A DNA stretch of 64,000 nucleotides from Candidatus Woesearchaeota archaeon. Lineage in GTDB: Archaea; Nanobdellota; Nanobdellia; SCGC-AAA011-G17; GW2011-AR18. Positions 4,723 through 36,061 of this stretch are shown here, one piece after another. The notes below the pieces were generated by a model that saw only the letters and a program-made list of their open reading frames with translations, did not search any database and was not told the origin of the DNA. Location of the stretch: the NCBI GenBank assembly GCA_018302765.1, contig JAGVZG010000001.1:68482-132481 (forward strand), in the 5' to 3' direction. Numbering within the stretch: the first letter of the stretch is position 1; each line of letters begins with the position of its first letter. Position numbers and translations under genes: made by a program.

Positions 4723-6333
4723 ATGACTAGTTTTACTGCTGATGAAATTGCTTTATTGGCAAGATATGTTTCGGACCCTAATGAAAATATATTTGTTGTT
4801 AGTGGATTAACCGGTATAATTGGTGCAGTTTATGCGCGTTATAGTAGATCACCAACAGGTTTTAGAGAGACATTTCTTAGAGAATTCTTGAATAATGGAA
4901 ATTTGGATCCGAGAAGAGCAGATGAATTAATAGAGAGGGTCTTGGTTGCATATGGTGATGATTCTGTTGGCGAACTTGAGGGGACTCATCTGTCTATTGA
5001 GAACATATCTATTTTAGCCACAAAAGAAATTGAAGACAGGAGAATAGGTGGCTCTCCAATAGAACAATCAACCAGGTACATAATATATAATACTAAAGAT
5101 GATAATGGGAGATTTAGGTTTTTTAGAGATCCTAAAATTATGGCTTCTGAATTTGGACAAAGATGTGAAGACACACTTAATTTTGTTTTTCAAACTTATT
5201 CTGAATTAGTCTCTTTATTGCAAGATTATTTTAAAAAATTAAAACCTATTGAAGATACACAGTATGCTATTAGAGCTGGAGATGAAAGGGAGTATATGCT
5301 TAGTGATTTATCAGAAGAAAGAGACTTAAGAGCTTTTAGATTGACTTATAAGAATGATATTAAGACAAAGGCATGTGATGTAACCAGAGTTTTATTACCT
5401 GCTGCAACATTAACCAATATTGGTATTTTTGGCAATGGAAGATTTTTTCAGGGTTTGCTTTCACATTTATATACGTTAGATGCTTTTGAAATGAATGATA
5501 TTGCTGCTAGGGCACATACTGCTTTGAATACAGTGATGCCAAGATATGTCAAGAGAGCTAGCCGTAGTTATTATCTGCATTCTGTTGATGAGAATATGAA
5601 AGATTTATCTAATAGTATTTTTAGCAGTGTAACTCCAGATAATGATGAGGATGTTGTTTTGCTTGATAATCCAAAGAATGATAAGGAGTATATGGATTTT
5701 TTATTGGCTGTAATGTTGTATAAATATTCATTATGTCCTATGAGGCAAATTAGAAGTGTTATTAGTAAATTACCAGATGAAAGAAAAATTGAGATTTTTA
5801 ATACTTATATTTGTAATAGAGAAAATAGAAGAAACAGGCCAGGCAGGGCTTTAGAATTTGGATATCCTTTGACTTTTGATTTAACTTTAGACTATGGAGA
5901 CTATAGGGATTTAGAAAGGCATAGAATATTGACACAAGAAAGACAAATGTTAACTCCTGATATTGATTTTGTAATATCTGATGAAATAGATGCAGTTGGT
6001 TTTAGAGGCAGAGTAAATGAAGCAGTTGAAAGGTCTGCTGAGCTTTATAATTTACTAAAGAAAGATTTTCCTTATGAAGCACAGTATGCTGTTTTACTTG
6101 GATTTAAAATTAGATGGATGGTGGGAATGAATCCTAGAGAAGCTATGCATATGCTGGAACTAAGAACTGGAAAGCAAGGCCATCCAAGATATAGGGCTAT
6201 GTGTCAGTCAATGCATAACTTGATTTCTCAGAGATGGCCTTTAATTGGTGAATCCATGAGTTTTGTTGACCATAGATCTTATTATTGGAGCAGAGCAGAG
6301 TCTGAAGCTGGTCAAAGAAGGAGAGAAAAATAA
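4723..6333 (+). CDS. thyX: long-form flavin-dependent thymidylate synthase-like protein (ThyX-like)
   Basis: Contains an RHR motif (DLERHRILTQE) and an ARYSRS segment reminiscent of ThyX. At 536 aa it is about twice the length of canonical ThyX. Confidence 0.5.
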   Translation: MTSFTADEIALLARYVSDPNENIFVVSGLTGIIGAVYARYSRSPTGFRETFLREFLNNGNLDPRRADELIERVLVAYGDDSVGELEGTHLSIENISILATKEIEDRRIGGSPIEQSTRYIIYNTKDDNGRFRFFRDPKIMASEFGQRCEDTLNFVFQTYSELVSLLQDYFKKLKPIEDTQYAIRAGDEREYMLSDLSEERDLRAFRLTYKNDIKTKACDVTRVLLPAATLTNIGIFGNGRFFQGLLSHLYTLDAFEMNDIAARAHTALNTVMPRYVKRASRSYYLHSVDENMKDLSNSIFSSVTPDNDEDVVLLDNPKNDKEYMDFLLAVMLYKYSLCPMRQIRSVISKLPDERKIEIFNTYICNRENRRNRPGRALEFGYPLTFDLTLDYGDYRDLERHRILTQERQMLTPDIDFVISDEIDAVGFRGRVNEAVERSAELYNLLKKDFPYEAQYAVLLGFKIRWMVGMNPREAMHMLELRTGKQGHPRYRAMCQSMHNLISQRWPLIGESMSFVDHRSYYWSRAESEAGQRRREK

Positions 6334-14060: not shown

Positions 14061-15521
14061 TTATTTAACATTTCCTATCGGAATTAATTTTGTTACAGGT
14101 TTAGAAATTCCTGCTTTAGCTAATGCATCAATTACGTCATTTATTTCTTTGTATGCAGATCCTGCTTCTTCAGCTAATCCAGACATTGATCCAGACTTAA
14201 CATAAATCCCTCTTTGTTCCATTTCTTTTTGTAGTTGATCTCCTCTAAATTCTTTCTTGGCTTGATGCCTTGACATTGTTCTGCCAGAACCATGTGCTGT
14301 ACTTGAGAAAGTTTCATTGTCTGCTTTTTCTGTACCGACTAATAAATAACTTCCTGTTTCCATTGAGCCGCCAATTATTACTGGTGATCCTATATCTCTA
14401 TATAATTTTGAAACCTCTGAATTTCCTGGACCCTGACACAAAGTTGCGCCTTTTCTATGAACAACTAATTTTTTCTTTTTTCCATCAATTTTAAATTCTT
14501 GTAATCTTGCTAAATTATGAGCTACATCATAGACACAGTGCATCTCCATATCTTCTGCTTTAGTTTTGAAAATTTTTTCAAAACCTTCTCTTATTCTATG
14601 TAAAATTACTTGTCTATTTGCGAAAGCCATATTTGCTGCACAAGCCATTGCTTTGTAATAATCTTGTCCTTCCTTGCTTGAAAATGGAGCACATGATAAT
14701 TCTTTATCTAAAATTTTTATTTTTTCTCTTTGCATTACATTTTCAAAAATTTTTAAGTAGTCTGTAGCAACCTGATGACCAAAACCTCTAGAGCCACAGT
14801 GGAACATTATTACAATCTGATCTGGAAAAATTCCAAATTTCCTTGCTATATCTTTATCAATAATATTTTCTGGTTTTACATGCTGAATTTCTAGATAATG
14901 ATTACCTGAGCCAAGTGTTCCTAGTTGATCAATTCCTCTTTGTCTTGCTTTTTGTGAAACTTTACTTGAGTCAGCCCAGTCAATTCTTCCATTACTTTCT
15001 ATTCTTTCTAAGTCTTTTTGCCAACCATAATTATTTTCAACACACCATTTAACACCTTCTTCCATTACATTATTGAATTGCTGATTATTTATTTTTACAA
15101 AACCTTTGCAGCCTACACCAGATGGTACTGTTTGGAAGAAAGTATTCACTAGTTCTTTTAATTTAGGCTGAACGTCTTTAATTGTGAGATTTGTTGTAAC
15201 AAGCCTCATGCCACAATTTATATCAAAACCAATTCCTCCTGGAGAGATTACTCCTGTCTCAGCATCCATTGCAGCAACTCCACCAATTGGAAAACCATAC
15301 CCCCAATGCCCATCAGGCATGCATAGTGCAGCTTTTTGTATTCCAGGTAGGCATGCTACATTGGTTACTTGGTCAAACACTCCGGGATCCATTGTTTCTA
15401 ATAATTTTTTAGTTGCGTAAATCCTTGCAGGTACGTTCATACCTTGCTTGAAACTAGTTGGGATTTCCCAAACTGCTTCTTCTATCTGTTTTGTATCTTT
15501 TGGTATATTTGACATAATCAA
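14061..15521 (-). CDS. rtcB: RNA-splicing ligase RtcB
   Basis: 486 aa. Metal-binding motifs typical of RtcB are present, including DGHWGYGFPIGGV, HCGSRGFGH and NHYLE. Confidence 0.9.
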   Translation of the reverse strand: MIMSNIPKDTKQIEEAVWEIPTSFKQGMNVPARIYATKKLLETMDPGVFDQVTNVACLPGIQKAALCMPDGHWGYGFPIGGVAAMDAETGVISPGGIGFDINCGMRLVTTNLTIKDVQPKLKELVNTFFQTVPSGVGCKGFVKINNQQFNNVMEEGVKWCVENNYGWQKDLERIESNGRIDWADSSKVSQKARQRGIDQLGTLGSGNHYLEIQHVKPENIIDKDIARKFGIFPDQIVIMFHCGSRGFGHQVATDYLKIFENVMQREKIKILDKELSCAPFSSKEGQDYYKAMACAANMAFANRQVILHRIREGFEKIFKTKAEDMEMHCVYDVAHNLARLQEFKIDGKKKKLVVHRKGATLCQGPGNSEVSKLYRDIGSPVIIGGSMETGSYLLVGTEKADNETFSSTAHGSGRTMSRHQAKKEFRGDQLQKEMEQRGIYVKSGSMSGLAEEAGSAYKEINDVIDALAKAGISKPVTKLIPIGNVK

Positions 15522-15724: not shown

Positions 15725-17041
15725 ATGGCAGACGTAGTTGTTCCGGATGGATCTAGCAGAGATGACGATACAGATAAAATTATAACTATAGATATGAGTG
15801 CAATAGCAGATGATACTACGCCTTTACTTCAACAAGTTCATAATGAAAAAAGTGAACCAATGGCTATACCTAATTCTTTAAATTTAAATCTTATTCATGA
15901 TACTAAAATTCATGAGCAAATTGAAGATTTGCGTGTTAGAGACTGTCCTAGTTTAGAAAAGGTTTTGATAGGTTTGGGATATGATGATTCACACAATATT
16001 GTTAATGTATCTGTAGAAGACGCTGATCCTATTTATTATAAGGTTGGAACTGGTCTTGTATTTCAAGTAGACTTAGAAATTAATATTGGTACGACTACAA
16101 GTGGTTTTGTTGGAATTGATTATAGGACATGTGAAATTCCGAATTTGCATGTTTTGGCAAGAAATTCTTCTAATTTAAATCGTAATAATAAATTAGCGAG
16201 CTTGTATAAGAAATGGGTAGATTTTAGTTATAAACATAATTTTAGTAAAATTGTAGGAATGATGGACAGCGATGATGTCGTTAGAATATTCAGAATTTTT
16301 GATTATGATAATATTGAAAATGTTGAAATTCATAAAGTTGAATTAGTTAAAAATGAATATTATTTAGAGGCTTCTTGTTTTTATAGATCTTCTGTTGGGA
16401 GTATAAAATCAAGTTTATTTTGTGGAAAAATTCCAGCGAGTAAAATTTTATTAGACGTACGTTATTTGGAAGCAAATGTGATGAATTTGAAGAGAAAATC
16501 TTCAGCAGGAAAAATTATATCTATTGGCGCTTTTGGACTTGCTAGTTTGCTTGGCTTAGCTTATTTAGGATTGAGTACTCAGGATGTTTCTGGCTATAGT
16601 CCTGATTTATTGACTTCAAGTGGCGGTGATTTAGTAAGTCCTGCAGATATGACGCTTCATGAAGATCTTAAGTCTGAATATTTAGGTGACGCTAGCAATG
16701 GCGTTGCGGTTGATTTAGGAAGTAGTTCTAGTCATCCACCAGTTAGAATTTCTTTTATGGCACGCAGACCTAAAACTAAGGGCAGTTTATTTGTTAAGGT
16801 TGGTGGTGCTTCAGATGGAAGACATGTATTTAAGTATACTGCTGGAAAAGTAGGTTCTTATAGTACAAAAACAGGTAAGCCATCTTTTTATTCAGATGCA
16901 TTTAATGATTGGGTTGGCACAACTGCTGACAAATATGAAAAAGTTGATTCAGACGGTGTTTATAATAATAAAAATTGCAACAAACCACAGAAAGGTTTAA
17001 TGAAAGATATGCCTGCTTATGTTTGTGCGCAGCCAAAGTAA
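15725..17041 (+). CDS. membrane protein P1: acidic N-terminal domain, central TM helix, C-terminal FKY/CKPQ/AYVC domain (paralog family)
   Basis: TM segment ISIGAFGLASLLGLAYLGL. The C-terminus (VRISFMARRPKTKGSLFVKVGG...VFKY...VYNNKNCNKPQKGLMKDMPAYVCAQPK) is near-identical in key motifs to the 32512 and 33830 proteins. Confidence 0.55.
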   Translation: MADVVVPDGSSRDDDTDKIITIDMSAIADDTTPLLQQVHNEKSEPMAIPNSLNLNLIHDTKIHEQIEDLRVRDCPSLEKVLIGLGYDDSHNIVNVSVEDADPIYYKVGTGLVFQVDLEINIGTTTSGFVGIDYRTCEIPNLHVLARNSSNLNRNNKLASLYKKWVDFSYKHNFSKIVGMMDSDDVVRIFRIFDYDNIENVEIHKVELVKNEYYLEASCFYRSSVGSIKSSLFCGKIPASKILLDVRYLEANVMNLKRKSSAGKIISIGAFGLASLLGLAYLGLSTQDVSGYSPDLLTSSGGDLVSPADMTLHEDLKSEYLGDASNGVAVDLGSSSSHPPVRISFMARRPKTKGSLFVKVGGASDGRHVFKYTAGKVGSYSTKTGKPSFYSDAFNDWVGTTADKYEKVDSDGVYNNKNCNKPQKGLMKDMPAYVCAQPK

Positions 17042-18176: not shown

Positions 18177-18611
18177 TTAAATGTCAACAAGCACTTTTGC
18201 TTTCCATTTGTCTTCTTCTTTTATTATTTCAAATTCATGCATTGTAATTGCCTTTGCATCGTCATGGAGATCCTGAGTTTCTCTGTTGATAAAATCACCT
18301 TCACATCTTGCAAATATTTCATATACTTTATTTTTGTGTGATATAACAACATCGAACTTGTTAAACAGCAAACCTTCTGTGTCTTTAACAAATATAAGTT
18401 CTGAAAGAAAATCATAAAGAAGATTTTCTATGGAATTTGTTTTTAGTGATATTTCATAATGCTCTTTAGTCTCCAATGTTTTTATGTCTACCATGATTTC
18501 TTCTAGAGCCAGAGCTGAATTTTCAAATAGGCTTTCTAATGTTTTTCCATAGGCTTCAAAAATTATATCTGCTGTGTGTGGTAGAAATTTATACTTCATC
18601 TTCTTTAACAT
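18177..18611 (-). CDS. archease (RtcB activator)
   Basis: 144 aa. The N-terminal FLPHTADIIFEAYG motif (HTAD) and a C-terminal ...KVLVDI match the archease family. Confidence 0.8.
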   Translation of the reverse strand: MLKKMKYKFLPHTADIIFEAYGKTLESLFENSALALEEIMVDIKTLETKEHYEISLKTNSIENLLYDFLSELIFVKDTEGLLFNKFDVVISHKNKVYEIFARCEGDFINRETQDLHDDAKAITMHEFEIIKEEDKWKAKVLVDI

Positions 18612-19053
18612 TCCTTCTTTCTACAACAATATTTATTTGCGTTGTCACACCTTCTTTATCTTCCCTTATTAAAATATTTCTGTCAGTTATTTGTTTTACA
18701 ATGTCTTTTATTGTGTAATCTGACTTCATTTTATCTCCAATCAAAACAGCATTTAGCATATATTCATTTGAAATTTGTTCTATTGTGATCTGCTTTATTG
18801 CTGATAATACAAATAACTCGTTATTTGCTAGTTCAAATAATCTTTTTAGAAATTGGAAAAGCAGATTTTTAAGATCCCTTGCTCTTATTATCAGTGTTTT
18901 TGTAATAGCTAGATCTATTTCTTCTGTGTTTATTACAATTTCAAATAATGACTTTGCTATTTTTGAGAACGATGCTTCTAAACTTGATGCTTTTTCTGAT
19001 ATTGTTATTTCTTCGACTTTGTGCTTTGACATAAGCTTTTTAATGCAATGCAC
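18589..19053 (-). CDS. archease-like paralog lacking the HTAD motif
   Basis: 154 aa. ASSLEASFSKIAKSLFEIV and ARDLKNLLFQFLKRLFELANNELFV align with archease core helices, but the metal-binding H-T-A-D is replaced by T-I-S-E. It overlaps the archease start by 23 nt. Confidence 0.45.
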   Translation of the reverse strand: MHCIKKLMSKHKVEEITISEKASSLEASFSKIAKSLFEIVINTEEIDLAITKTLIIRARDLKNLLFQFLKRLFELANNELFVLSAIKQITIEQISNEYMLNAVLIGDKMKSDYTIKDIVKQITDRNILIREDKEGVTTQINIVVERRNVKEDEV

Positions 19054-19144
19054 TTTATATAATTAACCTTGATAATGTTATTACTTTTAAGTAGCTAAAT
19101 ATAGGAAGATTTTTAAATAACTGAAGTTTTATTTTCATGTTAAT

Positions 19145-21649
19145 ATGGGAAAGGTTTTGAACTACGTAGGTAGAGGCATAAGAAATTTTGTTAGAAGGCA
19201 CAAGAAAGGGATTTCGCTAGCTGGAGCTTTAGTATTTGGCACTTCTGCTGCTTTAACTTGTGGCATTTATAAGTATATAACTACTCCTCCAAAGGATTTT
19301 GGAAGAGTAGGGCAATACTGGCATACTTACAAAGAACGTGAAAAATTAAAAAGTATAGAAAATAATGGTGCTTTAGAAAATAAGTTGAATATAAATAGAA
19401 AAGATAATGGTTCTTCAGGCGGGGCTTATCCTGATCCTAATATAATAGGCATTTGGCCGTTAACTCCGGATAACGGAATTAAGGTAGTTACTTCCAGTGG
19501 CAGAGAAATTGTTACTAGATACGCCACTTGGAACTATGCTTCTTTGGATGAAGTACCTAAAACTGTTATAAATTCTGTTTTAAGTGTAGAAGATGCAGAC
19601 TATCTTGAGCATAAAGGAGTAAACTGGAATTTAAGGAAGATTAAGGGTTTATTTTCTCCTATTCTTGGTGGAAGACGTGTTGGTGGAAGTGGCATAACAG
19701 AACAAGTATCTAAAATGATGTTTACTGATTTTGGTAAGATAAAGCCTAGGAGATCAGCAATGCAGAAACTTCGTGAGTTGCGTTATGCTTATTATTTAGA
19801 TAGTGTGCTTGGCAAGGAACAAGTATTAGAATTTTATTTGAATACAACGCCATTAGGAGACAGTTGTTATGGCGTAAAGTGCGCTGCTATGAATTACTTT
19901 GGTAAGGAACTGAGTAATTTAACTTTTCCTGAGAGTTTGTTTTTAGCAGCAATTATTAAAAATCCAGGAGCAAATCCAAAGAATAGTGGTTTTGAATTTC
20001 AAAAACGTAGATATGACATGCTCTGTGAGTCTTTGCACGATCTTGAAAGGATTACTGAAGATCAATATAAGGAGTGCAAATCTGCAGATGTGATTAAAAT
20101 GAAGCCTGGCTTAAAAAGAAGAAGATCTCCAATAAGTGATCCTAGTGTTTTTAGTGCTTTGGCTTATGAATTAGAAAATTATGATTTTGATTTAGTTGAC
20201 AATGTTGTTCATCAGCCAAATCCAGGTTTTGGGTTTACAGTTTATACTACAATAAATGATGAGATGCATGACGCTTTAGGCCAAGCATTTGTGGATGGAC
20301 TTAAACCAAATCAAGAACAGGTTCAACTTGGCGCTGGCGCTGTGCTGAATAGCGAGGCTCAAATAGTTGCTATTTTAGGCAGGACAGACTACAGTACGCT
20401 AAGCGGAGCTTGGAGTTTTAGGAATCTTGCTGTAGCTGGGAGACGTGCTGCTGCTTCTTCAATAAAGCCTTTTGTTTATGGTTCTTGCTATGACCAAGAG
20501 AATTCAAATATTACATGCAAACCAGGCAATGTTATTTCTGATTCTAAAAAAGGATTGAGAAATCCTCCTCATAATTTTGATGGAAAGTATGAAAGAAGAA
20601 TGTCTTTAGCAGAAGCTTTAACTTCATCGAATAATGTAATAGCTTATAAAGTGTGTCGTAGAATTGGACTTAGAAATGTACTTCCAGTTATAGAAGCTGT
20701 TGGATTTGATGTTGCTGAATATGAAACAGTATTTAGGGACTGCAGAAATACTGCTTTAGGCTCAGGGCGTGTAACTCCTTTAGAACTTGCTGCTGCTTAT
20801 CGTGTTTTTGTAAAAGACGATGATGGTAATTTTTCTGCAGAATATAGAAAGCCAACAATTATTGATAGGGTTGATTTATGGTCTTTTAATTACAAAGTAA
20901 ATCTATCTGCAACAAAAGTTTTTCGTAGTGCTAACACAGTTGAATCTGTTAGAATTAGCTTAGACAGGCTTGGAAATAAAATTGTTGGCAGTAAATATGA
21001 AGCAGATATAGGTTTTAAGACTGGCACTCCAAACCCCACTACACATTGGTATTTAGGTGGAGTTCTTGACCTTGATAGTGTTTCTTATTCTATAGGTTTT
21101 CTGGCTGTGGCTAAACCTAAAGTTGTACCTTCAAAAAAAAATCCTAAGGTTTTAGTAAAAGTTTATCCTAATAAGTTGTATGCTAGTGGCGTTCTTGGTC
21201 CTGTGGTAAAAAGTTTTGTTGACGGAGTTGCTCCTAGAAAAGAAATGAAGCCTATTGATCTATATGTTCCTGCTGTTGCTAGCTTGGACAGCGTATGCAG
21301 TAATTATAATTTAGCAAGCGTTGAGCTAACTTTGCCTAGTGCTGATAATCACGATCTTGAGACACTGGGAGATATTTTAAGTGCTTGCTCTTCTTATTTT
21401 TCTGCTAATAATGAAAATGAAAAGTATGGCTTATTTTCTTACGCTGCAGGCCGTGTCTGGGAGACTTTGTACAGTAATGAAGCAACGTCTTCTCCAGGCA
21501 GCAAAACTGCTTTGCTTTACTATAGCAGTGCAATTAATTCTTATAAAACAGCTGTTCAGGAAGACAGTTTTAGTAGTTTAGCTGAAGAAAGAATTAGAGA
21601 TTTAAAGATTAAAAGAGAACAGGAAGCTAATAGAATTCATGCAGATTAA
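19145..21649 (+). CDS. class A penicillin-binding protein (bifunctional GT51 peptidoglycan glycosyltransferase / D,D-transpeptidase), N-terminal TM anchor
   Basis: GT51 motifs EDADYLEHKG, GGSGITEQ, QKLRE and VLEFYLNTTPLG...YGVKCAAMNYFGK...LTFPESLFLAAIIKNP. Transpeptidase motifs SSIKP (SxxK), SSN (SxN) and KTGT appear with canonical spacing. A TM segment lies near the N-terminus. Confidence 0.8.
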   Translation: MGKVLNYVGRGIRNFVRRHKKGISLAGALVFGTSAALTCGIYKYITTPPKDFGRVGQYWHTYKEREKLKSIENNGALENKLNINRKDNGSSGGAYPDPNIIGIWPLTPDNGIKVVTSSGREIVTRYATWNYASLDEVPKTVINSVLSVEDADYLEHKGVNWNLRKIKGLFSPILGGRRVGGSGITEQVSKMMFTDFGKIKPRRSAMQKLRELRYAYYLDSVLGKEQVLEFYLNTTPLGDSCYGVKCAAMNYFGKELSNLTFPESLFLAAIIKNPGANPKNSGFEFQKRRYDMLCESLHDLERITEDQYKECKSADVIKMKPGLKRRRSPISDPSVFSALAYELENYDFDLVDNVVHQPNPGFGFTVYTTINDEMHDALGQAFVDGLKPNQEQVQLGAGAVLNSEAQIVAILGRTDYSTLSGAWSFRNLAVAGRRAAASSIKPFVYGSCYDQENSNITCKPGNVISDSKKGLRNPPHNFDGKYERRMSLAEALTSSNNVIAYKVCRRIGLRNVLPVIEAVGFDVAEYETVFRDCRNTALGSGRVTPLELAAAYRVFVKDDDGNFSAEYRKPTIIDRVDLWSFNYKVNLSATKVFRSANTVESVRISLDRLGNKIVGSKYEADIGFKTGTPNPTTHWYLGGVLDLDSVSYSIGFLAVAKPKVVPSKKNPKVLVKVYPNKLYASGVLGPVVKSFVDGVAPRKEMKPIDLYVPAVASLDSVCSNYNLASVELTLPSADNHDLETLGDILSACSSYFSANNENEKYGLFSYAAGRVWETLYSNEATSSPGSKTALLYYSSAINSYKTAVQEDSFSSLAEERIRDLKIKREQEANRIHAD

Positions 21650-21802: not shown

Positions 21803-23083
21803 ATGGCTAAGGCAAAACCACATTTAAACGTTGTATTTGTAGGTCACGTAGACCACGGAAAGAGCACTACAGTTGGGAGATTAATGTATGACGCAGGTGT
21901 TATTCCTGAGCAGGATATGAGAAAACTTAAGGAAATGGCTCAGCAGTTAGGAAAGGTTGGTTTTGAATTTGCTTTTGTTATGGATAATCTTAAAGAAGAA
22001 AGAGAGAGAGGAGTTACTATTGATTTAAGCCATAAAAAATTTGACACTCCTAAATTCGAATGTACAATTATAGATGCTCCAGGGCACAGAGATTTCATTA
22101 AAAATATGATTACAGGCGCTAGCCAAGCAGACGTTGCTTTCTTAGTTGTGGCTGCACCTGACGGAGTAATGGCACAAACTAAAGAACATGTTTTCTTGTT
22201 AAAGACTTTTGGTGTAAATCAGATTGCTATTGTTGTTAACAAGATGGACGTAGTAAAATATGACCAAGCTAGATTTAATAAAGTAAAGGAAGATGTAAGT
22301 GCTTTGTTAAAGTCTGTTGGATACAAGCCAGATCAAGTTAAGTTTATTCCAGCTGCTTCTTTCTTAGGAGATAACGTAGTGAAGAAGAGTACAAATATGT
22401 CTTGGTATACTGGATCAACTATCTTAGAACAAATAGATAATTTCAGTCCTCCTGAAAAACCAACAAACTTGCCGCTAAGATTGCCTTTGCAAGATGTTTA
22501 TAATATTACAGGCATTGGCGTTGTTCCAGTTGGTAGAGTTGAAACTGGAGTAATGAAAGTTGGCGATAAAGTGATTATAGTTCCTGGAAGGGAAGGAACT
22601 GGTATAAAAGGAGAAGTTAAAACTATTGAGATGCATCACGAGCAAATACAAGAGGCTGTTCCAGGTGATAATATAGGATTTTCAGTCAGAGGAGTTAATA
22701 AAAAAGATATTGCTAGAGGAGATGTTGTAGGACATGAAAATAATTCACCAATAGTTGTAAGTGAGTTTACAGCACAGATAGTTGTTTTAAATCATCCTAC
22801 AGTATTGACAGTTGGATACACTCCTGTATTTCATATACACACTGCACAAGTTGCTTGCCAATTTGTTAAGTTGTTAGCAAAACTTGATCCTGCAACAGGA
22901 CAAGTAATGCAAGAAAATCCTGACATGCTAAAGAACGGAGATGCAGCTAGGGTTGTTATAAAACCTACAAAACCTTTAGTAATTGAGAAACAGAAAGATA
23001 TACCTCAAATGAGTAGGTTTGCAGTTAGAGATGCAGGTCAAACTGTTGCTGCAGGCATGTGTATTGATTATGTGAAAAAGTAA
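21803..23083 (+). CDS. tuf: translation elongation factor 1-alpha (aEF-1A)
   Basis: 426 aa. [14 protein letters not shown] and the FKYAWV-like segment ([22 protein letters not shown]) are diagnostic of the archaeal/eukaryotic EF-1alpha form. Confidence 0.95.
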
Positions 23084-23185: not shown

Positions 23186-23497
23186 ATGCAAAAAGCAAGA
23201 ATAAAATTGGCAAGCGCTGAAATTGACTTACTCAATGAAGTAGTTAATTCTATAGTCGATATAGCTAAAAAAACTAATACTGTTATTAGAGGACCAATTC
23301 CTTTGCCAACTAAGAAATTAAAAATAACCACTAGAAAGTGCCCTTGCGGCGACGGCAGGGCTAGTTTTGATAGGTTTGAAATGAGAGTTCATAAAAGACT
23401 AATTGATTTAGGCGTTGATGAGAGAGCATTAAGATTAGTTATGAGAGTTCCTTTACCAAAAGGGGTGAACATAGAAATAAACCTTTTGGAGAAGTAA
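23186..23497 (+). CDS. rps10: 30S ribosomal protein S10
   Basis: 103 aa. The conserved tuf-rps10 order of archaea is present, and [11 protein letters not shown] matches the S10 loop. Confidence 0.85.
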
Positions 23498-27003: not shown

Positions 27004-27894
27004 ATGGTTTTGATAAGAAAAAAATCAATAGATAGCAAGGAGTATTATTATTTGGAACATTCATTTAGAGAAGCAGGTTCTGTCAAAAAAAAAGAACTTT
27101 ACTTAGGAACTGAGATTCCCAAAAATATTGAAGAAATCAAGATAAAATTTACTGAAGAAATATATAAAGAAAGATGGAGTAAAACATTAGAAGAGATAAA
27201 AAAAGAGTATAATAAAGAAAATAGATCAATACCAGAATCGTTAACTGAAAAAGAAATAGAATCTTTTATGATTAAATTTACTTATAATACTCAAAGGATA
27301 GAAGGTTCAAGGTTAACATTAAGAGAAACTGCAAATTTATTAGAAAAAGGAATAACGCCCAAAGAAAAACCTGTTAGAGATGTTAGAGAAGCAGAAGCAC
27401 ATAAAAAAGTATTCTATGAAGTGTTAAAATTCAAAAAAGACTTGTCATTAGATTTAATTCTTCATTGGCATAGAATGTTGTTTTTAGAAACAAAAAAAGA
27501 TATGGCTGGAATACTAAGAAAACACCAGGTTGCAATATCTGGGAGTAAGTTTATACCTTCCTCTCCTGTAGAAGTTTATTTATTATTAAGGGAATTCTTT
27601 AAATGGTATGAAAAAAATAAAAGTAAGATAAATCCTGTAGAATTAGCAGCATGCGTTCATTTAAAATTTGTTACAATACACCCATTTGGAGATGGGAATG
27701 GGAGAATATCAAGACTGATGATGAATTTTGTTCTCAAAAAAAATAAATATCCAATGTTAAATATAAAATATGAAGGAAGAAATAGTTATTATAATGCGCT
27801 TGAAAGATCGCAAGTAAAGAAAAATGAAGGAATATTTATACAATGGTTTATAAAAACTTATATAAAAGAAAATAAAAGATATTTGAAGAAATAA
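27004..27894 (+). CDS. fic: Fic-family protein (AMPylase-type) with putative inhibitory helix
   Basis: Fic motif HPFGDGNGRISR (HPFx[DE]GNGR). An upstream TQRIEG matches the [ST]xxxE[GN] auto-inhibition motif. Confidence 0.8.
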   Translation: MVLIRKKSIDSKEYYYLEHSFREAGSVKKKELYLGTEIPKNIEEIKIKFTEEIYKERWSKTLEEIKKEYNKENRSIPESLTEKEIESFMIKFTYNTQRIEGSRLTLRETANLLEKGITPKEKPVRDVREAEAHKKVFYEVLKFKKDLSLDLILHWHRMLFLETKKDMAGILRKHQVAISGSKFIPSSPVEVYLLLREFFKWYEKNKSKINPVELAACVHLKFVTIHPFGDGNGRISRLMMNFVLKKNKYPMLNIKYEGRNSYYNALERSQVKKNEGIFIQWFIKTYIKENKRYLKK

Positions 27895-32511: not shown

Positions 32512-33774
32512 ATGTCTATTAAAAATTGGACAATAGGTGGCCTTGGTGCACTTGTTTTAGGACTTGCTGCTTCTTCTTTAACTTGTAAGCCTTGCAATGA
32601 TTTAGCAAGAAAAGTTAGTGGTAAAGAACTTCCTTTATTTGGTCGTGTTAATGGAAATACGCAAAACAAAAATCCTGCTCCTTTGCCTAAGCCTCATGTT
32701 GCAGATGACGAACCTGCTGCTGACGAAGGTAGTAGTGATGATAGTTCTGAAAAAACTACAGAATCTGCAGAAGTAGAATCAAAAAGTTCTGGTTCATCAG
32801 ACGCAGATTCTTCTTCTAAAAAACCTAGTTTTGTTAAAGTTGGCAATGTTGGAAATAAAGACGTATTCAAATATGACTTAGGTAAAGTTAGGGATGGAGA
32901 GGGTTCATTTTTGTACGCTGTTAGATTTAATAAATGGGACGACAGTTCTGAAGGAGACACCTATAAAAAAGTTGGTCAAAATGATGTTTACAATAATAAA
33001 AATTGTAAGCCACAGAAAAATTTTATGAAAGGTATGCCTGCTTATGTTTGTGTTCTTCCTAATAATGGGGAAAGTGGAGACACTCCTGGAGATGCTGGTG
33101 ATCGTGCTCCAAATAATGTTGAAGTGAGGTCAGATTCTGGTGCAGTTGCAACAACAGATCCTACATCTACTCGAACTTTGCACGTAGCAATAGAACGTCC
33201 AAGTTCTCCAGATCTTGGTTCAGATTCTGGCGTAGGCAGTTCTGGAACAATTGAATTAGTTGTTAATCCTTATGCTAATGCTACTGAGACAGCAACTCCT
33301 GCTGAGAGTGGCGACTCTGAAGATGATAGTTCTGGCGATACTTACGATGAAGATGCTGCTGGCACTTCTGGTCGTCGTGATTATACTGACCCTTTTGGCG
33401 TTGTTTTGTCTGGCGACCCAGTTGCAGCACAATATGGCACTGCAATAATAAGTGGTTTTAATGAAGCTTATCAAGATAAATATAGGACTAAGAACAGCGG
33501 TAAATGCTTAAGTGTAAATATTGGTTTAGAATACGCTGTTGGAGCAAAAGGCGAACTTGTTAGTATAAGGGGATATTTTTGTGGGGACTTAGAATCATGC
33601 GCTGGAAGAGGAAAACTTTATTTGGATCAACCTCATGATTCTAGTTTAGATGAAAATTTTACTTTTGGAAGAGAGCTGATTAAGGTAATAAGAGTAGAGA
33701 ATTCTAAAAGGCCACTTGTTTCTGTCAAAAGAGGAAACTACGTAGGTTCTATAATTGAATTTGGTTGTGAATGA
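32512..33774 (+). CDS. secreted protein P3: signal/TM N-terminus, acidic Ser/Asp/Glu-rich low-complexity linkers, FKY/CKPQ/AYVC domain (paralog family)
   Basis: N-terminal hydrophobic segment GGLGALVLGLAASSL. The KKPSFVKVGNVG...VFKY...VYNNKNCKPQKNFMKGMPAYVCVLP domain matches the C-terminus of the 15725 protein. Confidence 0.55.
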   Translation: MSIKNWTIGGLGALVLGLAASSLTCKPCNDLARKVSGKELPLFGRVNGNTQNKNPAPLPKPHVADDEPAADEGSSDDSSEKTTESAEVESKSSGSSDADSSSKKPSFVKVGNVGNKDVFKYDLGKVRDGEGSFLYAVRFNKWDDSSEGDTYKKVGQNDVYNNKNCKPQKNFMKGMPAYVCVLPNNGESGDTPGDAGDRAPNNVEVRSDSGAVATTDPTSTRTLHVAIERPSSPDLGSDSGVGSSGTIELVVNPYANATETATPAESGDSEDDSSGDTYDEDAAGTSGRRDYTDPFGVVLSGDPVAAQYGTAIISGFNEAYQDKYRTKNSGKCLSVNIGLEYAVGAKGELVSIRGYFCGDLESCAGRGKLYLDQPHDSSLDENFTFGRELIKVIRVENSKRPLVSVKRGNYVGSIIEFGCE

Positions 33775-33829: not shown

Positions 33830-36061
33830 ATGTCTTTAAGATCACTACTATATGCAGCGCTTTTTTTATTTATTGGCAGTGCTGAAACTAACGTTGATGC
33901 TGCTAGAAAACCTAGGTCAGAGAGAACAGCGTTTTCTAAAATAAAAGAAAAGGGTAATGTACATGTTTTTAAGTACAGAGTATCTAGTGGTGAAAAAGAC
34001 AGTGATATTGCTTTGAAATTTGGGATTTGGGACAGAGGCCAAGGCAGTTTGTATGAAACAGTTACTTCTGCAAGCGTTACTGGCGACCCTTCTTGTAAAC
34101 CTCAACTTCTTAAAAAAGAAAACATTGCTTATGTTTGCGCTAATAGAAAACTACGTGTAGTGCCTAATGATTTCAAAGGGCCTTCTATTGAATTTATAGA
34201 TTTGTTTGATACTCCTTATTGGGGTTCTTTGTTGAAGGTTACAAAGAGTTTTGGTCCTGATGGATTTCCAGTTCACACTGTTGATTTAAATATAACTGCA
34301 AGAGAAAAAATAAATGTTAATTCTAGGAGAAGTGCTTATGCTTATAGAGGTTCACATGATTTGGAAAGTATAACTATTTTTGCTTTTGATAGAGATGCTG
34401 AGAGAGATCTTACTTTATGTCCAGAAAAAGTCTATGAGTTTAAGTATGACGAGCTAGTTACTTTGCCTAATTGCATTACTGATGGTTCTTATGGTATTTT
34501 GGCAGCTTTAGAACATTTTGCTAAGTTTGAGTATGGCGTTTTAGATAAATATACAGAAACTGTTCCGCCAGGATTAGCAGGTTTTAAGGCTGGAAGATTA
34601 GTTAAACCATCTGCAGAACTTGCACCAGCTCCGATAATATTTATAACTCCTCCACCTTCTCCAACACCTTTAGTTCCAGTTCCAGTTTCAACAATACCAG
34701 CAGCTCCTAGTGGTTCAAGTGCTTCATCTTCTGCTACTACAACAGTTCATTCTCCACCTATTAGTTTCAAAGCTAGAAGACCAGGACCTGGTTCAGCTGT
34801 ACCTTCAGTTGGTTCAGGAATTTCAACAATACCAGCAGCTCCTAGTGGTTCAAGTGCTTCATCTTCTGCTACTACAACAGTTCCTTCTCCACCTATTAGT
34901 TTCAAAGCTAGAAGACCAGGACCTGGTTCAGCTGTACCTTCAGTTCCAGCTTCGGTTTCTGTTTTTAGCGGTTGGACTGATACCGCTTTAGGTTCAAGCA
35001 CTGAATCTTGTAGTGCCTGCGCATCAACAAACTCAGTACAATTTGTAGGAGGAGTTAGAGTTCGTGGCTTGTTAAGTAACGTTGAATTTAATAGCAACAC
35101 AGGTTTAGAATCTTCTTATGGTTTTATTGGTGGAGATTTACGTTTAGTTTTGGGTGGGGGTGTTGGGAATAATTATTTAGCAGTTTCTGCAGCTGCTGGA
35201 TTAAGAAAAGTTGGCGTAGATGGATTATTAAGTAAAAGGCTTTTGGACTTTGGTGACAATAGTAATACAACTCATGTAGAAGTTGGACCGTCTGGAAGAT
35301 TACATTTAGCTAAAGGAAATAAATTGGAAGTTGATGCTGTACTTAATCCTGCTTTTTTATATAGTAGAGAGCGTGTAAATAATTTTGGCGGAAATAGTTT
35401 CTTAGAGGAAGGTAAAGGGCTTAGGATAAATGGCAGTGTAGCTTTACCTCGTCTCTTATTTAATGGAGAAAAATTTGCTTGGGGTTTATACGGTGATTTT
35501 GATTTAGAGGCATTGAGACTAAAGCAAACTAATCTGAATAGTGGACAGGAAACTTTGTTTGGCTGGAGAACTAGAGGATCTTATGGCGGAGGCAGTTCTT
35601 TTAGTTTTGATGCTTTAGGAACAGACGTTAATATTGGTGTTGGATTTAGGACGCACCATAATTATAATTTAGCTTTAAGAAGTAATTTATCTCCTAATGA
35701 TTTAAAGTGGTTACAATACAGACAACAGAGAGGTTTTATACTTGATTTAAGTGATCTTACTGTAGGTGATTCTAGAGGGTATACTTTAGACCCAGCTTTA
35801 ACTATTGAAAATGATAGGTTTTATTTAAGACTTGAAGGACAAGTATCTATTTATGGAAATGTAAGGAGAGGGGGATTTTGCTTAAATACTGGTGGCAAAA
35901 CCAGAGGTGGTTTATACATTGGTAGTGGGTTTTGTTACAGTGATATTACTCAAGAATCTGAAGCAGGCAGTGCCAGAAGCAGGGGAGGATCAGTTAATAT
36001 TACTTTAGGAAGTCCCAGTATTAAATTAAATCCAAGAATTGATCAGGCAGACATAAGATAA
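33830..36061 (+). CDS. secreted protein P4: signal peptide, divergent FKY/CKPQ/AYVC domain, Pro/Ser-rich region with tandem ISFKARRP-containing repeat, Gly/aromatic-rich beta-strand-like C-terminal domain
   Basis: Signal peptide LLYAALFLFIGSA. Motifs VFKY...SCKPQ...IAYVCA are present. SPPISFKARRPGPGSAVPSV appears twice. The C-terminal ~350 aa shows alternating hydrophobic/polar residues rich in G, N, R, Y and F. Confidence 0.55.
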   Translation: MSLRSLLYAALFLFIGSAETNVDAARKPRSERTAFSKIKEKGNVHVFKYRVSSGEKDSDIALKFGIWDRGQGSLYETVTSASVTGDPSCKPQLLKKENIAYVCANRKLRVVPNDFKGPSIEFIDLFDTPYWGSLLKVTKSFGPDGFPVHTVDLNITAREKINVNSRRSAYAYRGSHDLESITIFAFDRDAERDLTLCPEKVYEFKYDELVTLPNCITDGSYGILAALEHFAKFEYGVLDKYTETVPPGLAGFKAGRLVKPSAELAPAPIIFITPPPSPTPLVPVPVSTIPAAPSGSSASSSATTTVHSPPISFKARRPGPGSAVPSVGSGISTIPAAPSGSSASSSATTTVPSPPISFKARRPGPGSAVPSVPASVSVFSGWTDTALGSSTESCSACASTNSVQFVGGVRVRGLLSNVEFNSNTGLESSYGFIGGDLRLVLGGGVGNNYLAVSAAAGLRKVGVDGLLSKRLLDFGDNSNTTHVEVGPSGRLHLAKGNKLEVDAVLNPAFLYSRERVNNFGGNSFLEEGKGLRINGSVALPRLLFNGEKFAWGLYGDFDLEALRLKQTNLNSGQETLFGWRTRGSYGGGSSFSFDALGTDVNIGVGFRTHHNYNLALRSNLSPNDLKWLQYRQQRGFILDLSDLTVGDSRGYTLDPALTIENDRFYLRLEGQVSIYGNVRRGGFCLNTGGKTRGGLYIGSGFCYSDITQESEAGSARSRGGSVNITLGSPSIKLNPRIDQADIR
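34688..34945 (+). repeat. near-perfect tandem duplication: two 123-bp units separated by 12 bp (period 135 bp) inside the P4 coding sequence
   Basis: Units 34688-34810 and 34823-34945 differ at about one base (cattct vs ccttct). Each encodes STIPAAPSGSSASSSATTTV[H/P]SPPISFKARRPGPGSAVPSV. Confidence 0.85.

Follow-up and report, generated by a model that had tools for sequence, protein, structure and literature searches.

Murein synthases are a textbook marker dividing Bacteria from Archaea. In this article, we describe a gene for a class A penicillin-binding protein (PBP) in the genome of a small groundwater Woesearchaeota archaeon (DPANN), located in a 64,000-nucleotide stretch of contig JAGVZG010000001.1 (positions 68,482 to 132,481) that we refer to as the window and to which coordinates refer unless another contig is named. 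The gene (P0001; 19145..21649, + strand) encodes a protein of 834 aa and was characterized from the open reading frame (ORF) list, its translation, Pfam matches and an AlphaFold model. Its closest described counterparts are the bacterial PBP1A-type enzymes, among them A. baumannii PBP1a (3UDF/3UE1), H. influenzae PBP1A (5U2G), S. aureus PBP2 (2OLV/3DWK) and E. coli PBP1b (3VMA). The archaeal protein has the same two-domain layout behind one N-terminal anchor, the same predicted fold and the same catalytic residues (two glutamates in the GT51 glycosyltransferase domain and SxxK, SxN and KTG in the transpeptidase domain). It differs from the bacterial enzymes in that it is encoded in a genome without a lipid II pathway, is only 20-25% identical to them, possesses N-terminal and TPR-like C-terminal segments of its own while a UB2H domain is not detected, is relaxed in the basic residues of GT51 motifs 3 and 5, and reads GGSGITEQ in motif 2.

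Other described systems resemble this one in particular respects. The SLT/GH23 proteins of Woesearchaeota and Pacearchaeota are likewise bacterial-type, murein-directed extracellular proteins of murein-less DPANN archaea and were read as evidence of bacterial hosts or prey (PMC8204110, PMC9723730); however, they degrade murein, whereas the archaeal PBP is of synthase type (GT51 plus transpeptidase), with an unrelated fold and the opposite chemistry, and extends a toolkit hitherto described as degradative only by an activity of synthesis or remodelling. Bdellovibrio offers a parallel for PBP-type enzymes of one cell working on the murein of another, in that its PBP4-type DD-endopeptidases reshape the wall of a different cell (PMC3276566), but these are secreted low-molecular-weight PBPs of a wall-building bacterium and not a putatively membrane-anchored, bifunctional class A enzyme. 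The GT51 protein of Micromonas is also a murein glycosyltransferase transferred out of Bacteria, although it comes as a set with GT28 and a murein hydrolase while the archaeal PBP is an orphan (PMC3541169). Among the 101 archaeal genomes of a survey from 2012, none contained GT51 (PMC3541169), and in the open, non-paywalled literature that we searched there is no mention of either class A PBPs or GT51 proteins from DPANN archaea. As far as this search extends, an archaeal clade of orphan, fast-evolving class A PBPs with a TPR-like tail has been present in public metagenome-assembled genomes since 2015 without being discussed.

The data presented below describe an intact murein synthase that has long been kept by a DPANN family unable to make its substrate, with similar enzymes acquired independently by several other DPANN lineages. 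Our tentative interpretation, to which we assign a probability of roughly 0.45, is that the protein is a domesticated, outward-facing murein enzyme that acts on material of a bacterial partner at the site of contact, alongside the SLT enzymes of the same genome. If the PBP does act on the wall of a partner, it would be direct genetic evidence for a life on bacteria, and not on archaea, in these uncultured Woesearchaeota, and would offer a concrete means of locating both the host and the place of contact.

Domain architecture and predicted structure

The 834-codon ORF is uninterrupted and its translation matches the Pfam families Transgly (PF00912; aa 128-292, E 2.3e-38, 131.9 bits) and Transpeptidase (PF00905; aa 404-632, E 1.1e-10, 41.7 bits), both above the Pfam gathering cut-offs by which they were judged (27 and 22.1 bits, respectively). 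A preliminary description of the window, made by a model from the sequence alone, had proposed a complete class A PBP at this position, and the ORF, the two domains and the quoted motifs are all found as described. The only correction concerns the transpeptidase triad, of which SSIKP and KTGT stand while the tripeptide given as "SSN" was one residue out of register: the homologous SxN is S495-N496-N497, and neither S495 nor N497 varies in alignment A1 or A2.

The protein has one strongly hydrophobic segment, which constitutes the predicted single N-terminal membrane anchor (aa 23-45; 19211..19279, + strand). The Kyte-Doolittle maximum of 1.73 falls at aa 23-41, a long helix spans residues 20-46 of the model, and the tail formed by aa 1-21 contains seven K/R and no D/E. 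The combination of a basic tail with the hydrophobic segment suggests an N-in topology in which all downstream parts are extracellular, so that the catalytic domains and the C-terminal domain would lie outside the cell. A lipobox in the anchor was also considered and dropped because Cys38 is not conserved in alignment A1. The anchor leads into a clade-specific juxtamembrane segment recognized from the same alignment (aa 46-127; 19280..19525, +), in which G56, W59 (GQYW), P96 and D97 (FPD) are invariant; the match of generic bacterial class A PBPs to the clade profile begins only at about position 115.

The peptidoglycan glycosyltransferase domain of family GT51 (aa 128-292; 19526..20020, +), identified by Pfam and by structure and sequence matches, matches the Aquifex PGT (2oqo/3nb6) and the GT domains of PBP1A. 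Its motifs EDADYLEHKG (aa 149-158), GGSGITEQ (aa 180-187) and QKLRE (aa 207-211) include the residues of motif 1 (EDxxFxxHxG; E149, D150, H156 and G158) and motif 3 (xKxxE; K208 and E211), the catalytic glutamates being E149 (nt 19589-19591, +) and E211 (nt 19775-19777, +). The acyl-serine transpeptidase domain (aa 404-699; 20354..21241, +), delimited by Pfam and structural alignment, contains SSIKP at aa 438-442 and KTGT at aa 625-628, and its triad consists of S438xxK441 (nt 20456-20467), S495xN497 (nt 20627-20635) and K625-T-G (nt 21017-21025), all on the + strand. The remainder of the protein is a clade-specific, TPR-like helical domain (aa 714-834; 21284..21646, +), defined from the model, its Atlas neighbours and alignment A1. 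It comprises four long helices after residue ~714 modelled with a pLDDT of ~90, and C748, L775, A796, Y800 and A813 are invariant among clade members in A1. This domain has no Pfam match even at E = 1 and no usable Atlas feature match; its structural neighbours in the Atlas are generic TPR proteins with TM scores of 0.56-0.64. A Pfam scan of the PBP found no SLT domain (PF01464).

The AlphaFold model, computed from a 67-sequence alignment, has a pLDDT of 89.9 and a pTM of 0.79. The structure prediction, which the preliminary description had proposed as a check, returned a class A PBP fold: residues 110-699 of the model superimpose on A. baumannii PBP1a (3ue1_B) with Z 35.1 and a root-mean-square deviation of 6.3 Å over 474 residues, the Z score against E. 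coli PBP1b is 31.8, and sequence searches of the PDB match PBP1A, PBP2 and PBP1b. By all sequence and fold properties tested the protein is a class A PBP, and the residues present predict a catalytically competent, bifunctional enzyme of bacterial type. Scores against the NCBIfam models of the named subfamilies stay below their cut-offs for PBP1A (TIGR02074, PBP_1a_fam; 225.5 bits, cut-off 508.75), PBP1B (TIGR02071; 116.2 bits, cut-off 717.75) and PBP1C (TIGR02073; 160.8 bits, cut-off 494.2). Judged by its sequence, then, the protein is not a member of any of these subfamilies and represents a separate clade with two extra segments.

Upstream of the gene, a TATA-box-like TTTAAATA (19111..19118, +) was read from the sequence ~27-34 nt 5' of the ATG. 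This box would fit an archaeal promoter with a near-leaderless mRNA, for which it is weak evidence in a genome of 30% GC.

Search for a substrate pathway

A murein synthase requires precursors, and the preliminary description had offered a murein-like layer in this lineage as one explanation of the gene. We searched the genome to which the window belongs (1.02 Mb in 28 contigs, 100% complete, 1.15% contaminated) with profiles of the murein pathway, omitting MurA, MurB, alanine racemase and the undecaprenyl-phosphate enzymes; the profile controls matched in the expected bacteria. No match was found in this genome to Mur ligases (Mur_ligase_M, PF08245), to FtsW/RodA (SEDS), to D-Ala-D-Ala ligase or to GT28/MurG. 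For MraY the cut-off is 192 bits, and the only GT4 protein of the genome reaches 46; for MurJ it is 235 bits, and the best flippase, a Wzx/Polysacc_synt protein, reaches 27. The genome encodes no PF00905 protein other than the PBP. PF08245 Mur ligases were likewise not found in five PBP-bearing relatives (G001, G005, G006, G017 and G021), and the GT51-bearing genomes of the phylum sample contain at most one FolC-like Mur_ligase_M match of ~400 aa each, with the exception of G454. Since Mur ligases, MurG, D-Ala-D-Ala ligase and SEDS proteins are not found and MraY and MurJ stay far below their cut-offs, a self-made murein layer is not supported, and the PBP is not part of an endogenous murein biosynthesis system. 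Consequently, for a cell unable to make UDP-MurNAc-pentapeptide or lipid II, the substrate would have to be of bacterial origin.

The exceptional genome, G454, belongs to the same class and includes a 12-kb contig (C37:1-12061, L057) that encodes an MraY in which the MraY signature is present, two Mur ligases (one of them a fusion with peptidase M23), a monofunctional GT51 protein of 281 aa, a FemAB-like protein, a Polysacc_synt flippase, Wzy_C, an ALG10-like protein and a DUF4015 hydrolase. The GC content of this cluster is 42-47%. The contig carries no phylogenetic marker; it may be bacterial and mis-binned, or it may represent a pathway of murein type that belongs to a DPANN archaeon.

Conservation and evolutionary rate

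Members of the PBP clade are only 25-45% identical overall, and the active-site residues are fixed or almost fixed. The motifs SxxK, SxN and KTG are kept in all 21 clade members and in all 67 bacterial sequences; specifically, S438, K441, S495, N497 and K625-T-G-T occur in 21/21 clade members and the triad is invariant in alignment A2. In the GT51 domain, E149 and K208 are each kept in 20/20 and E211 in 18/20 (Asp in the other two) of the clade members with the residue aligned, and 90% or more of the 67 aligned sequences retain E149, D150, H156, G158, K208 and E211. Between two species of the same genus, by contrast, the PBP is 32% identical, compared to 74-76% for the archeases encoded beside it and 95% for EF-1alpha. 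Fixed active sites in a fast-diverging, surface-exposed accessory protein are what one would expect of an enzyme that engages another organism.

Proposed function and alternatives

The same genome encodes two SLT lytic transglycosylases, one of 380 aa on contig C16 (L036:589-1728) and one at C26:28217-28378 in an open frame of 2262 aa, and SLT proteins are found in 21 of the 27 genomes of the family. We propose the following mode of action. The PBP would be held in the archaeal membrane with its N-terminus inside and with the GT51, transpeptidase and TPR-like domains directed outward. Its substrate would be the wall, the nascent glycan strands or the lipid II of a bacterium, host or prey, where the two cells touch, and together with the SLT lytic transglycosylases the PBP could remodel, re-seal or cross-link the murein of the partner. 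Alternatively, the PBP might covalently engage the D-Ala-D-Ala stem peptides of the partner. Interaction with a bacterial partner was among the options named in the preliminary description, and it is the one favoured by the evidence, the mechanism itself being what we infer.

Several observations weigh against this interpretation, the chief difficulty being the location of the donor. GT51 enzymes use lipid II embedded in their own membrane, and for the archaeal PBP that membrane is archaeal. Host lipid II might conceivably reach the enzyme through scavenging of host lipids, a purely speculative step, whereas the transpeptidase domain, which needs no membrane substrate, could act directly on exposed stem peptides. 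GGGP synthase (PF01884) was not found in a profile search of the genome, a hint that the archaeon depends on foreign lipids, and another DPANN archaeon was shown to take up lipids of its host (PMC11035636); scavenging of lipids by the archaeon studied here is plausible. A second difficulty concerns the GT51 domain, where 64/67 bacterial sequences and just 5/21 clade members retain the Arg of motif 3, 62/67 and 5/21, respectively, retain that of motif 5, and motif 2 is GGSGITEQ instead of the bacterial GGSTITQQ. The basic residues of motifs 3 and 5 contact the diphosphate of the lipid-linked donor, so that their change may mean an altered or less tightly bound substrate; that the donor is a different one altogether could follow, which we treat as a lead and not as a result. 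Finally, the gene is dispensable, GT51 being present in just 9 of the 27 family genomes, and no host is known for this lineage.

The PBP might instead be mainly a murein-recognizing adhesin or sensor whose polymerase activity would be unimportant, in our estimation an unlikely alternative. Such a protein would tie the archaeon to the exposed stem peptides of a bacterium or to its glycan strands, with a long-lived acyl-enzyme as a possible means of attachment, and its TPR-like domain would bind a partner protein. The rapid divergence of the exposed regions around fixed active-site residues, the additional extracellular TPR-like domain and the lack of lipid II in cis all agree with this function, as does the decay of one of the two domains in other DPANN archaea, where the proteins of genus g13 (see below) have no recognizable transpeptidase domain. 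However, both GT51 catalytic glutamates and the full transpeptidase triad are kept, which exceeds the needs of mere binding.

The altered GT51 residues, which are near-fixed in bacteria, can also be taken as a sign that the clade builds an endogenous envelope polymer other than murein. The GT51 domain would then polymerize a polyprenyl-diphosphate-linked N-acetylhexosamine oligosaccharide made by way of GT4 and Wzx-type genes, and the transpeptidase would attach or cross-link the polymer to surface proteins. This scheme has the advantage of placing enzyme and substrate in the same membrane, and a GT4 phosphosugar transferase and two Polysacc_synt (Wzx-like) flippases are indeed clustered on contig C10, but GT4 and Wzx are ordinary archaeal glycosylation genes. 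The transpeptidase of this family requires an acyl-D-Ala-D-Ala donor, and its triad is invariant even though the genome has no match to D-Ala-D-Ala ligase or Mur ligases. It would also be odd for a structural wall component to be missing from 18 of the 27 family genomes and from a congener in which the synteny is otherwise identical. We consider an endogenous polymer improbable.

A more radical version of lipid scavenging, in which the cells import the lipid II of a bacterial host along with other membrane lipids and the PBP polymerizes and cross-links it into genuine peptidoglycan, either around the archaeal cell or spanning the junction between the two partners, is in our judgement very unlikely; if imported lipid II were polymerized in this way, there would be archaea with real murein in their envelope, or archaea welded to a bacterial sacculus.

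Residence in the archaeal genome, distribution and origin

That bacterial DNA was mis-joined to, or mis-binned with, the archaeal contig can practically be dismissed: class A PBPs are overwhelmingly bacterial and the GC content of the gene (36.2%) lies at the 95th percentile of the genome, but GC3 (21.7%, 67th percentile) and codon usage (distance at the 49th percentile) are ordinary for this genome, housekeeping genes flank the PBP gene on both sides within a 132.7-kb contig, both of its junctions are bridged without error, and the same archease-PBP layout recurs in metagenome-assembled genomes from several studies. The bridging contigs are independent assemblies of four other groundwater or soil metagenome runs from four studies; they span the archease/PBP and the PBP/EF-1alpha junctions without mismatch at an even depth of 4-6x. 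Bridging contigs, synteny and native codon usage exclude, as far as the data go, both a mis-assembly and a recent transfer, which answers the concern about a chimeric contig raised in the preliminary description.

Of the archaeal neighbours named there, RtcB, archease, aEF-1alpha and S10 were identified by Pfam. Two tandem archease genes (18177-18611 and 18589-19053, - strand) are oriented divergently to the PBP gene, aEF-1alpha (21803-23083, +) follows 153 bp 3' of it, S10 lies at 23186-23497 (+) and RtcB at 14061-15521 (-). The archease genes overlap by 23 nt, one being canonical (E 7e-40) and the other divergent (E 1.5e-14); members of the family conserve the two as a pair, and RtcB is located 2.6 kb away, separated by two ORFs without known function. 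A PBP homologue is found transcribed away from the same archease pair in five other genomes of the family, representing five genera (L004-L008), and the archease-archease-PBP layout occurs also on an unrelated NCBI contig (L048). aEF-1alpha follows the PBP gene in G001, the sole relative whose locus extends far enough. In a congener (G002; L055, G002:C50:7000-16500), aEF-1alpha, 89% identical to that of the window, abuts the archease pair with a gap of 60 bp and the PBP gene is cleanly absent, with no remnant detected by tblastn.

The survey of GT51 proteins was confined to the archaeal phylum of the window, where they are present in 20 of 401 sampled genomes, so that the description of class A PBPs as a purely bacterial hallmark needs softening. 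Within the order, 9 of 240 genomes contain GT51, all of them among the 27 genomes of this family. A profile search of 1.84 billion cluster representatives yielded ~20 that match the clade profile from end to end, both the N- and the C-terminal extension being covered, and of these the weakest scores 300.9 bits; the next score, 256 bits, belongs to ordinary bacterial class A PBPs, which match in the two catalytic domains only. The full-length set and two proteins that belong to other orders of the class form one clade (SH-aLRT 99), and for the three deeper-branching members whose contigs were inspected, the gene context is archaeal in two cases and ambiguous in the third. The PBP of the window pairs with cluster P0123 (SH-aLRT 96), presumably a copy from the congener of the window's genome.

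In our tree, a quick LG+G4 reconstruction in which deep placements and the sister group (P0142, P0248 and P0040) are tentative, the DPANN-only clade is nested among bacterial class A PBPs, in agreement with the horizontal acquisition suggested in the preliminary description. The other DPANN GT51 proteins scatter among bacterial sequences, and the approximately unbiased test rejects a single clade of all DPANN GT51 proteins (p 0.0033), which points to several independent transfers from bacteria to DPANN archaea. One of these transfers appears to be old and now typical of this Woesearchaeota family. The data are best explained if the family ancestor acquired the PBP gene from bacteria long ago and the gene was subsequently inherited vertically with repeated losses.

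Two further loci of the family deserve mention. Members of genus g13 (G024, G022 and G014; L040-L042) encode GT51 proteins of 1084-1357 aa in which the transpeptidase part is unrecognizable, and that of G024 adjoins aEF-2; these proteins may be either a much-diverged branch or a separate acquisition. In G015, a genome of the family without the PBP, the slot beside the archease genes holds a gene for an alpha/beta-hydrolase of 645 aa (L056:5383-7317, -) with lipase, LCAT, PGAP1 and Tle3-like matches, possibly a secreted, membrane-directed enzyme.

Other features of the window

The preliminary description had also suggested a functional connection between the PBP and a secreted paralog family encoded elsewhere in the window (ORFs 15725-17041, 32512-33774 and 33830-36061). 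The three ORFs do have in common a domain of ~85 aa with two conserved cysteines (NC-KPQ ... AYVC) and 36-54% identity (16775-17038, 32800-33075 and 33899-34156, respectively, all + strand), although the first of them has no obvious signal sequence. A link to the PBP is not supported by the distribution of these genes, which are nearly genome-specific and do not co-occur with the PBP among the 27 family genomes. The domain has no Pfam match; a LysM-like identity was considered and dropped after alignment and given that there was no Pfam LysM match. Elsewhere in the window, we observed genes for a ThyX-like protein of 536 aa with two Thy1 stretches (4723-6333, +) and for a Fic-domain protein (27004-27894, +).

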